From Escherichia coli (GTDB taxonomy: Bacteria > Pseudomonadota > Gammaproteobacteria > Enterobacterales > Enterobacteriaceae), in NCBI RefSeq assembly GCF_024700885.2, contig NZ_CP117016.1: a DNA stretch of 64,000 nucleotides, one strand, 5' to 3'. The notes under the pieces were generated by a model. It searched no databases, was not told the origin of the DNA, and was given only the letters and a program-made list of their open reading frames with translations. The position numbers and the translations under genes were made by a program. Positions 30,515-51,609 of this stretch are shown in pieces (positions within the stretch are counted from its first letter, which is position 1; each line of letters opens with the position of its first letter).

Positions 30515-30835
30515 ATGAAAATAACATTACTGGTTACCTTGCTTTTCGGACTGGTTTTTTTAACCACCGTCGGCGCTGCCGAGAGAACCTTAACCCCGCA
30601 ACAACAGCGTATGACCTCCTGTAATCAGCAGGCGACGGCGCAGGCGTTGAAAGGGGATGCTCGTAAGACCTACATGAGTGATTGCCTGAAGAACAGCAAG
30701 TCTGCGCCTGGTGAAAAAAGTTTGACGCCACAGCAGCAAAAGATGCGCGAATGTAATAATCAAGCAACGCAACAATCTCTGAAAGGTGATGATCGTAATA
30801 AGTTTATGAGCGCCTGCCTCAAAAAAGCCGTCTGA
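30515..30835 (+). CDS. psiF: phosphate starvation-inducible protein
   Basis: ORF 30497..30835 trimmed to MKITLLVTLL (106 aa); internal duplicated motif LTPQQQ(R/K)M..CN.QAT.Q.LKGD.R. Confidence 0.85.
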   Translation: MKITLLVTLLFGLVFLTTVGAAERTLTPQQQRMTSCNQQATAQALKGDARKTYMSDCLKNSKSAPGEKSLTPQQQKMRECNNQATQQSLKGDDRNKFMSACLKKAV

Positions 30836-44978: not shown

Positions 44979-46274
44979 GTGCTGGAACGGCTGTCGTGGA
45001 AAAGGCTGGTGCTGGAGCTGCTACTTTGCTGCCTCCCGGCTTTCATCCTGGGTGCATTTTTTGGTTACCTGCCCTGGTTTTTGCTGGCATCGGTAACGGG
45101 ACTGCTTATCTGGCATTTCTGGAATTTGTTGCGCCTTTCATGGTGGCTGTGGGTGGATCGTAGTATGACCCCGCCACCGGGACGTGGTAGCTGGGAACCG
45201 CTGCTATACGGATTACACCAGATGCAGTTGCGAAATAAAAAACGCCGCCGCGAACTGGGCAATCTGATTAAACGCTTTCGTAGCGGCGCGGAGTCGCTGC
45301 CCGACGCGGTGGTGCTGACCACGGAAGAGGGCGGTATTTTCTGGTGCAACGGTCTGGCGCAACAGATTCTTGGCTTGCGCTGGCCGGAAGATAACGGGCA
45401 GAACATCCTTAACTTGCTGCGTTACCCGGAGTTTACGCAATATCTGAAAACGCGTGATTTTTCTCGCCCGCTTAATCTGGTGCTCAACACCGGGCGGCAT
45501 CTGGAAATTCGCGTCATGCCTTATACCCACAAACAGTTGCTGATGGTGGCGCGTGATGTCACGCAAATGCATCAACTGGAAGGGGCGCGGCGTAACTTTT
45601 TTGCCAACGTGAGCCATGAGTTACGTACGCCATTGACCGTGTTACAGGGTTACCTGGAGATGATGGATGAGCAACCGCTGGAAGGCGCGGTACGTGAAAA
45701 AGCGTTGCACACCATGCGCGAGCAGACCCAGCGGATGGAAGGGCTGGTGAAGCAGTTGCTGACGCTGTCGAAAATAGAAGCCGCACCGACGCATTTGCTC
45801 AATGAAAAGGTTGATGTGCCAATGATGCTGCGCGTTGTTGAGCGCGAGGCTCAGACTCTGAGTCAGAAAAAACAGACATTTACCTTTGAGATAGATAACG
45901 GCCTCAAGGTGTCTGGCAACGAAGATCAGCTACGCAGTGCGATTTCGAACCTGGTCTATAACGCCGTAAATCATACGCCGGAAGGCACGCATATCACCGT
46001 ACGCTGGCAGCGAGTGCCGCACGGTGCCGAATTTAGCGTTGAAGATAACGGACCGGGCATTGCACCGGAGCATATTCCGCGCCTGACCGAGCGTTTTTAT
46101 CGCGTTGATAAAGCGCGTTCCCGGCAAACCGGCGGTAGCGGATTAGGGTTAGCGATCGTGAAACATGCGGTGAATCATCACGAAAGTCGCCTGAATATTG
46201 AGAGTACAGTAGGAAAAGGAACACGTTTCAGTTTTGTTATCCCGGAACGTTTAATTGCCAAAAACAGCGATTAA
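44979..46274 (+). CDS. phoR: phosphate regulon sensor histidine kinase
   Basis: 431-aa ORF; H-box [10 protein letters not shown]-box [10 protein letters not shown]; follows phoB. Confidence 0.93.
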
Positions 46275-46299
46275 TCCGCCTTTGTCATCTTTTATTGCC

Positions 46300-46330
46300 A
46301 TAAGCCAGCCGATGCTGGCTTATTTTCTTT
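46300..46330 (+). terminator. rho-independent terminator after phoR
   Basis: aagccagc-cgat-gctggctt hairpin followed by attttcttt. Confidence 0.7.
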
Positions 46331-46680
46331 GCAGTCAAAATACGGGCGTTAGATTTTACAACGGTTGGTGATTTTTTGTTCGCATGATTAGCCATGTCTT
46401 TTTCACGGAAATAGTGTTTTATACTGGTTGGTGATTTCTTATCGCTATATACCTCTGGTTTTTAGATCCCTTCTTGCTTTAAAACGTTATAAGCGTTTAA
46501 ATTGCGCTTCAGGTGCTGTCATACTGACTGCATTAACGCGGTAAATCGAAAAACTATTCTTCGCCGCGCCTGGTTGGGAGTATTTCCCGCTAAAATTGTT
46601 TAAATATACCGCTGTATCATCCCCAGGGATTGGCACAAAAATTTAACGTTACAACACCACATCCACAGGCAGTATGATTT

Positions 46681-48000
46681 ATGACCCATCAATTAAGATC
46701 GCGCGATATCATCGCTCTGGGCTTTATGACATTTGCGTTGTTCGTCGGCGCAGGTAACATTATTTTCCCTCCAATGGTCGGCTTGCAGGCAGGCGAACAC
46801 GTCTGGACTGCGGCATTCGGCTTCCTCATTACTGCCGTTGGCCTGCCGGTATTAACGGTAGTGGCGCTGGCAAAAGTTGGCGGCGGTGTTGACAGCCTCA
46901 GCACGCCAATCGGTAAAGTCGCTGGCGTACTGCTGGCAACGGTTTGTTACCTGGCGGTGGGGCCGCTTTTCGCTACGCCGCGTACAGCTACCGTTTCCTT
47001 TGAAGTGGGGATTGCACCGCTGACGGGTGATTCCGCGCTGCCGCTGTTTATCTACAGCCTGGTCTATTTCGCTATCGTTATTCTGGTTTCGCTCTATCCG
47101 GGCAAGCTGCTGGATACCGTGGGCAACTTCCTTGCGCCGCTGAAAATTATCGCGCTGGTCATCCTGTCTGTTGCCGCGATTGTCTGGCCGGCGGGTTCTA
47201 TCAGCACGGCGACTGAGGCTTATCAAAACGCTGCGTTTTCTAACGGCTTCGTTAACGGCTATCTGACCATGGATACGCTGGGCGCAATGGTGTTTGGTAT
47301 CGTTATTGTTAACGCGGCGCGTTCTCGTGGCGTTACCGAAGCGCGTCTGCTGACCCGTTATACCGTCTGGGCTGGCCTGATGGCGGGTGTTGGTCTGACT
47401 CTGCTGTACCTGGCGCTGTTCCGTCTGGGTTCAGACAGCGCGTCACTGGTCGATCAGTCTGCAAACGGCGCTGCTATTCTGCATGCTTACGTTCAGCACA
47501 CCTTTGGCGGCGGCGGTAGCTTCCTGCTGGCGGCGTTAATCTTCATCGCCTGCCTGGTAACGGCAGTTGGCCTGACCTGTGCTTGTGCAGAATTCTTTGC
47601 CCAGTACGTACCGCTCTCTTATCGTACGCTGGTGTTTATCCTCGGCGGCTTCTCGATGGTGGTTTCTAACCTCGGCTTAAGCCAGCTGATCCAGATCTCC
47701 GTACCGGTGCTGACCGCTATTTATCCGCCGTGTATCGCACTGGTTGTATTAAGTTTTACACGCTCATGGTGGCATAATTCGTCCCGCGTGATTGCTCCGC
47801 CGATGTTTATCAGCCTGCTTTTTGGTATTCTCGACGGGATCAAAGCATCTGCATTCAGCGATATCTTACCGTCCTGGGCGCAGCGTTTACCGCTGGCCGA
47901 ACAAGGTCTGGCGTGGTTAATGCCAACAGTGGTGATGGTGGTTCTGGCCATTATCTGGGATCGCGCGGCAGGTCGTCAGGTGACCTCCAGCGCTCACTAA
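46681..48000 (+). CDS. brnQ: branched-chain amino acid:cation symporter (LIVCS family)
   Basis: 439-aa polytopic membrane ORF. Confidence 0.9.
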
Positions 48001-51504: not shown

Positions 51505-51609
51505 GTTTGTTAAATATTTGTCCCGTTCGATATGAGCGATTTTTGGTATTCTTTGCCCATGAGGTTATGTACAACCTGCTCCAGGATAACCCTGTATTGG
51601 AGCAAAGAT

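Follow-up and report, generated by a model that had tools for sequence, protein, structure and literature searches.

An imperfect direct repeat upstream of Escherichia coli brnQ may reflect a phased array of Lrp-like sites

An imperfect direct repeat lies between phoR and brnQ in Escherichia coli, and the question it raises is whether its two copies form a regulatory element in their own right or are the by-product of some other feature of the brnQ upstream region. We analyzed a 64-kb stretch of E. coli DNA (the window, to which all coordinates refer) with the gene order sbcD-phoB-phoR-brnQ-proY, where phoR (44979 to 46274) and brnQ (46681 to 48000) are separated by 406 bp (46275 to 46680). 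The intergenic region is 100% identical in strain 1190 and was found in 5424 of 5426 complete E. coli genomes; in K-12 MG1655 it carries zero annotated features. One of the 5424 matching records bears a plasmid label where a chromosome would be expected, probably because the replicon was mislabeled or is a large chromid. A scan of one genome per species yielded 80 Enterobacteriaceae loci, from which 79 sequences were aligned; phoR-brnQ synteny and an intergenic length of approximately 400 to 420 bp are retained in nearly all 80. In Escherichia sp. MOD1-EC7003, phoR is separated from the conserved sequence upstream of brnQ by about 740 bp of extra DNA (approximately 1350 to 2090 of that locus), which includes the REP-like GCCGCATCCGGCATG.

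The window contains exactly two copies of the 12-mer GGTTGGTGATTT, starting at 46363 and 46426 and thus 63 bp apart, and these 12 nt constitute the exact core common to both copies (46363 to 46374 and 46426 to 46437). An earlier note on this DNA had placed the repeat within 46360 to 46445, with copies about 63 bp apart; we confirmed both the location, with ggttggtgattttttgttcgc at 46363 to 46383 and ggttggtgatttcttatcgc at 46426 to 46445, and the spacing. Ungapped extension gave 20 of 24 identical positions (46354 to 46377 versus 46417 to 46440), and extension with one gap to approximately 30 nt gave 24 of 30 (46354 to 46384 versus 46417 to 46446). No further copy of the 12-mer with up to one mismatch was present in the 64-kb window; it is therefore not a repeat family. 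Repeat pairs at distances of 15 to 150 nt were scored +1/-1 against first-order shuffles of the window (n = 15). The brnQ pair scored 16, and the shuffles contained a mean of 0.13 pairs of at least this score per window, with one or more such pairs in 2 of the 15. Two further exact 12-mer pairs at 15 to 150 nt are found in coding DNA of the same window. The repeat is thus real and unusual, with a significance across the window that is borderline.

Other repeats were observed elsewhere in the window. An internal duplication with 132-nt spacing lies in a coding region at 30576 to 30693, which we take from the gene order to be probably psiF, with a repeated domain. A 507-amino-acid open reading frame (ORF) between malZ and acpH (51532 to 53055), annotated as hypothetical and having no Pfam match, contains an A-rich 24-nt tandem repeat (52440 to 52506) that encodes a Lys/Glu-rich segment; of the 5426 E. 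coli genomes, only 1126 carry this ORF at a coverage of at least 80%.

The position of the repeat relative to the transcript was fixed by published start-site data. Kim et al. 2012 (PMC3415461, supplementary file 2) list one brnQ start, at NC_000913.2 position 418645, with a 5' untranslated region (5'UTR) of 170 nt, and print the 51 nt that end at this site; this 51-mer places the start at window position 46511, and transcription start data put the Klebsiella pneumoniae brnQ start at the equivalent position. The features defined by the repeat and the start site, with minus positions counted from 46511, are as follows.

46300 to 46330, plus strand: phoR intrinsic terminator from a terminator scan; stem-loop at 46300 to 46323, then a T-run
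46354 to 46384, plus strand: repeat copy 1, TTTTACAACGGTTGGTGATTTTTTGTTCGC; -157 to -127
46417 to 46446, plus strand: repeat copy 2, TTTTATACTGGTTGGTGATTTCTTATCGC; -94 to -65; its core forms the spacer between the predicted -92 and -61 sites described below
46458 to 46510, plus strand: core brnQ promoter block, from start-site data; 90 to 100% conserved
46511 to 46680, plus strand: brnQ 5'UTR (170 nt); conserved hairpins; C/A-rich stretch ahead of the start codon (ATG at 46681)

The pairing of the terminator stem is kept through compensatory changes in other genera (AAGCCAGC/GCTGGCTT versus GACCAGC/GCTGGTC). The two repeat copies, at -148 to -128 and -85 to -66 in the extents of the earlier note, are upstream of the mapped start and outside the brnQ transcript; therefore, the description of the region as a brnQ leader, and any reading of the repeat as part of the transcript, fails. 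The A/T-rich segment downstream of the copies is the core brnQ promoter. It consists of a -35 element, TTGCTT (46474 to 46479), an 18-nt spacer, a -10 element, TAAATT (46498 to 46503), and a GCGCTTC discriminator, with a T5 tract at -51 to -47 in the upstream part of the block. This promoter was missed by a sigma-70 promoter scan because it matches the consensus at only 7 of 12 positions, a score that fits dependence on upstream factors; the same scan called no promoter in the repeat region. The idea that the repeat is a duplicated promoter element could not be sustained: the mapped promoter is downstream of the repeat and unlike it, the rest of the 63-nt unit is dissimilar between the copies (P = 0.89), and Tandem Repeats Finder (TRF; minimum score, 30) returned no array. 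Within the promoter, an invariant near-palindrome, TTTAAAACGTTATAAGCGTTTAAA, was noted in the spacer (46478 to 46501) as an inverted repeat, and an invariant GATC lies just upstream of it (46465 to 46468); this palindrome is a possible operator that would overlap the brnQ promoter.

Downstream of the start, the 5'UTR is highly conserved and contains three to four hairpins with compensatory changes (46537 to 46541 with 46564 to 46568, 46575 to 46579 with 46585 to 46589, and 46619 to 46622 with 46627 to 46630), as well as an invariant loop, AAAAACTATTCTT. In a manually drawn structure, 71% of cells pair, compared to 31 to 55% in slid controls, and changes on both sides occur in 27 cells, compared to 15 ± 3 in shuffles; pair counting of this drawn structure gives moderate support for the hairpins. 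RNAalifold returned no structure for the leader, for which the alignment is gappy, and a search of the 5'UTR against Rfam matched no family. The C/A-rich stretch at 46631 to 46668, just before the brnQ ATG, includes the invariant CAACACCACATCCACAGGCAGT. This stretch is likely to be the GcvB R1 target and a translation-enhancer region; brnQ is a published target of GcvB R1 (PMC9299463), and the best predicted R1 duplex (-23 kcal/mol; P of about 0.04) falls at 46631 to 46657.

The earlier note had named lack of conservation in close relatives as the first of two observations that would speak against its proposal, and the repeat is indeed not kept there: outside E. coli, the two 12-mers match at 10 of 12 positions in Escherichia albertii, 9 of 12 in Escherichia sp. 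E1V33, and 8 of 12 in two further Escherichia lineages. Within E. coli, both 12-mers are kept in most genomes, including those of ST131 and O6; K-12 has a G-to-A substitution at 46364 that reduces the match to 11 of 12, and copy 1 occurs as the window allele in 3851 genomes and as the K-12 allele in 362. In the 79-sequence alignment, the 5' half of copy 1 (GGTTGGTGA) varies between genera and the 3' half (TTTTTTGTTCGC) is nearly invariant; copy 2 is only 40 to 60% conserved outside Escherichia, and few parts of the region are conserved less. The two copies are thus not both kept in relatives, as those of a conserved paired operator would be. Across 39 Enterobacteriaceae lineage clusters, the similarity of the copies within a species did not exceed that between species (Wilcoxon P = 0.93). 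Escherichia and Kluyvera alone stand out in the similarity of copy 1 to copy 2, and the sequence that the copies share is specific to each of these lineages. These comparisons indicate that the repeat as such is not a conserved feature; as read from the alignments, two spacer segments have come to resemble each other recently, and in E. coli only. Concerted evolution or gene conversion of the copies was considered and rejected, since there is no general within-species excess and the E. coli state needs only two to three substitutions.

If the 12-mer is not conserved, what is? We scanned 46335 to 46475 with the 15-bp SELEX consensus for the leucine-responsive regulator Lrp, YAGHAWATTWTDCTR, which is reportedly that of Cui et al. 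1995. Matches with up to five mismatches are centered at -157, -138, -124, -92, and -61, and all except -138 (five mismatches) fall on a ladder with spacings of 33, 32, and 31 bp. Such phasing of about 30 to 33 bp, or three helical turns, is needed for cooperative binding by an oligomer. The predicted sites, together with the most conserved upstream block (Block C), are as follows.

46347 to 46361, no strand assigned: weak Lrp-like site, unit 1, centered at -157; CGTTAGATTTTACAA, four mismatches
46371 to 46405, no strand assigned: Block C, TTTTTTGTTCGCATGATTAGCCATG..TTTTTC; -140 to -106; near-invariant
46380 to 46394, minus strand: weak in-phase Lrp-like position at -124, inside Block C; four mismatches
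46412 to 46426, plus strand: Lrp-like site, unit 3, centered at -92; TAGTGTTTTATACTG, two mismatches
46443 to 46457, plus strand: Lrp-like site, unit 4, centered at -61; degenerate in E. coli (CGCTATATACCTCTG), five mismatches

The summed mismatches of the ladder were 15, compared to 22.2 ± 1.4 in shuffles (0 of 300 as low), for a consensus that is AT-rich and degenerate and a phasing statistic that was devised after the first matches had been seen; this score was the best among approximately 64,000 start positions in the window. K-12 positive controls gave 16 for the ilvIH upstream region, which includes the classic TAGAATTTTATTCTG site with one mismatch, 16 for the livK upstream region, and 19 for livJ. 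The ilvIH control and a qualitative description in 10.1101/276808 were the only checks on the consensus itself.

The array is more widespread than the repeat. In 78 Enterobacteriaceae species, the best ladder was always at homologous positions, with P values of 0.05 or less in 68 of the 78. Furthermore, in a motif-free autocorrelation, the top family-wide lag was 31 bp (mean Z score, 1.55; above 2 in 12 of 40 lineages), and lags of 63 and 62 were on top in E. coli only. By a rough count, matches with two or fewer mismatches are expected about 0.1 times per 400 bp. The -92 site is the sole good match in E. coli; across the 78 species, its logo, T-R-G....C-T-R, is kept through 59 distinct sequences. 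The family majority at -61 is TAGTATATTCATCTG, with two mismatches, and a match with three or fewer is found in 58 of 79 sequences; the -61 logo, Y-R-G-y-A-T-A-w-T-s-w-T-C-T-G, is approximately invariant at A5, T6, A7, T12, C13, T14, and G15. Both logos keep exactly the end positions that define the consensus, and the interior varies. In Enterobacter there are two Lrp-like sites, with two mismatches each, 31 bp apart, and in other genera the best match for unit 1 is at -154/-155 and ends in CTG. Consensus matches and a phasing of 30 to 33 bp, two of the marks of an Lrp multisite region, are therefore both present at the level of sequence. Units 1 and 3 are each followed by a spacer that holds a 12-mer core, and two units together span 63 bp. 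The suggestion of paired sites for a regulator, with Lrp as a candidate, consequently stands in part: phased Lrp-like 15-mers that score like those of ilvIH and livK are found here, but GGTTGGTGATTT is outside the Lrp-like motif.

We give a probability of roughly 0.55 to the explanation that copies 1 and 2 correspond to each other as segments of a conserved four-site array (units 1 and 3) of Lrp-like sites, with a period of about 31 bp, upstream of a weak sigma-70 promoter. Each unit would comprise a 15-bp site ending in CTG or ATG, followed by a T-rich spacer. An Lrp oligomer (an octamer or larger) would occupy the two sites with the strongest support, -61 and -92; the weaker in-phase positions at -124 and approximately -155 would be filled cooperatively, and the DNA would wrap around Lrp over about 125 bp, with the result that promoter activity is set in response to leucine. 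The 12-mer, as part of the spacers that follow units 1 and 3, would have no sequence-specific role; its exact identity would have arisen in the E. coli lineage by two to three point substitutions on a weaker ancestral resemblance (TCTG plus a T-tract). The similarity of the copies in both Escherichia and Kluyvera counts against this view, in that drift fits two such cases less comfortably than it would fit one. That the protein is Lrp, and the direction of regulation, are inferred. A passage in PMC4474525 that cites Cho et al. reports that Lrp affects brnQ-proY, and PMC10127797 reports that regulation by Lrp requires oligomers larger than dimers and that leucine lowers Lrp binding. The supplements of PMC10127797 and 10.1101/276808, in which we sought Lrp chromatin immunoprecipitation coordinates for this locus, contained no brnQ entry, and neither did that of PMC7815308.

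The position of the copies also bears on chance as an explanation. That the repeat is a pure coincidence in T-rich intergenic DNA, with no link to the site architecture, is doubtful but carries some weight: the shuffles gave an expectation of 0.13 per window and an equally good pair in 2 of 15, and two to three substitutions suffice to lead from an ancestral match of about 8 or 9 of 12 to the E. coli state. It leaves unaccounted for that the copies occupy equivalent positions in a phased array and that in a second genus, Kluyvera, these two segments likewise resemble each other. A rather unlikely alternative is that the repeat is the relic of an ancient tandem duplication, in which a site-plus-spacer unit built the phased array and E. 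coli and Kluyvera have retained or reacquired more of the similarity. All four units share a "(C/A)TG plus T-tract" pattern, the 31-bp period is family-wide, and the family majorities of copies 1 and 2, read by eye, share roughly TCTGNTNNTNTTTT; however, the 63-nt units are unrelated outside the match of about 30 nt, the similarity does not run across the whole 63-nt period as it would in a tandem duplication, and no lineage has a clean one. A shared functional constraint, namely, a site end followed by a bendable T-tract, explains the resemblance equally well. A simple tandem duplication in E. coli was rejected on the same dissimilarity and on the TRF result.

The two copies, each containing GGTTGGTGATTT, might instead be the recognition sites of a single regulator, Lrp or another, bound six helical turns apart on one face of the DNA. 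The exactness of the 12-mer, the 63-bp spacing, the overlap of the 5' extension of copy 2 with the good -92 site, and the retention of both 12-mers in most E. coli genomes would all agree with such a paired operator, but we regard it as improbable: the core is outside the 15-bp matches, copy 2 is poorly conserved, the match falls to 8 to 10 of 12 in other Escherichia and is broken by substitution in K-12, the comparison over 39 lineages gave no within-species excess, and the window holds no additional copy of the 12-mer with up to one mismatch. Least credible of all is a coding or RNA feature, be it two small ORFs (46312 to 46371 and 46384 to 46434) that both end in F-Y-x-G-W-stop, a leader peptide, or an RNA structure. 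Both copies do read TTT TAY xxx GGT TGG TGA in the same frame, and the second ORF has 16 codons; against this, transcription starts downstream of both copies, a Shine-Dalgarno sequence is lacking, several genera have lost the ATG, and neither peptide is conserved. Among the small ORFs, the plus-strand 46384 to 46434 and minus-strand 46395 to 46285 ("MANHANKK...") frames were both rejected, with starts lost, lengths ranging from 7 to more than 44 amino acids, unconserved tails, and no Shine-Dalgarno sequence. RNA folding of the upstream region gave no signal on either strand (z scores, +0.2 and +1.5), and Rfam at an E value of 10 or less gave no relevant match, the single subthreshold hit being to tmRNA at the phoR end and terminator (7.5 bits versus a gathering threshold of 47; E = 1.4). 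The repeat thus lies outside the transcript and has neither the conserved structure or leader ORF nor the covariance model match of a leader or cis-regulatory RNA.

The phased Lrp-like array is not the whole of what is conserved. In 74 species outside Escherichia, Block C has a majority conservation of 80 to 99%; it exceeds the end of phoR in conservation and is single copy in 5423 E. coli genomes. No conserved ORF was found in it on either strand, and it gave no RNA-folding signal. This block, the most conserved one upstream, is not clearly Lrp-like, so that another factor may dominate the brnQ upstream region. When the repeat and Block C were compared by eye with patterns for CRP, sigma-54, the PhoB box, Fis, IHF, FNR, ArcA, GlpR, PurR/Cra, and the marbox, there was no convincing fit, and inspection by eye revealed no Pho-box-like sequence in the brnQ upstream region. 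We consider it unlikely that Block C is the operator of an Enterobacteriaceae-wide brnQ regulator, with the E. coli partial copy at -85 to -66 as a second, weaker site.

One genome records what the repeat can do. In strain A39 (NZ_CP028737.1; assembly GCF_022493155.1), exactly 63 bp, equivalent to 46363 to 46425 of the window, have been deleted, with the junction inside the 12-bp identity (...TTTTACAAC joined to GGTTGGTGATTTCTTATCGC). The strain has lost one repeat copy and the intervening DNA, including two units, Block C, and the -92 site, and brnQ is intact. A39 is the sole genome with this deletion among the 5424, and the deletion could in principle be an assembly artefact. The event resembles RecA-independent replication slippage between short direct repeats in that one copy and the intervening 63 bp were lost; it differs from such deletions in having been observed in just one genome of the 5424. 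The only demonstrated consequence of the repeat is therefore mutational, as the substrate for a 63-bp repeat-mediated deletion. The A39 allele, which is devoid of the two units and Block C, could serve as a ready-made natural test.

In conclusion, the brnQ upstream region has the ordinary promoter architecture of a gene known to be affected by Lrp, and the repeat is a lineage-specific by-product rather than a new element. The value of the analysis is modest: a statement at the level of the gene, that Lrp affects brnQ, becomes a model that can be tested site by site, in which predicted sites at -61 and -92, joined by positions in phase at -124 and -155, precede a weak promoter. The analysis also indicates that mutagenesis should not be aimed at the eye-catching 12-mer. 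Room for something new is left in Block C and in the structured 170-nt leader, which has no Rfam annotation.

Two groups of known systems invite comparison. Operators of the PhoB/OmpR/PhoP/ArcA type are also built of direct repeats, and the brnQ copies are direct repeats that adjoin the phoBR operon; however, the half-sites of response regulator operators are 10 to 11 bp apart and conserved, whereas the brnQ copies are 63 bp apart and not conserved. The other group comprises the multisite Lrp promoters of ilvIH, livK/livJ, and pap. Unlike those, brnQ has a single close site in E. coli, its most conserved block (46371 to 46405) is not Lrp-like, and its Lrp sites are predicted only. As in those promoters, degenerate 15-bp matches lie upstream of a weak sigma-70 promoter; as in the ilvIH/livK type, they would be phased at about 31 to 32 bp over more than 100 bp, with comparable scores (15 for brnQ, 16 and 16 for the controls). 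The gene itself also fits this company, since brnQ encodes a branched-chain amino acid transporter reported to be affected by Lrp.
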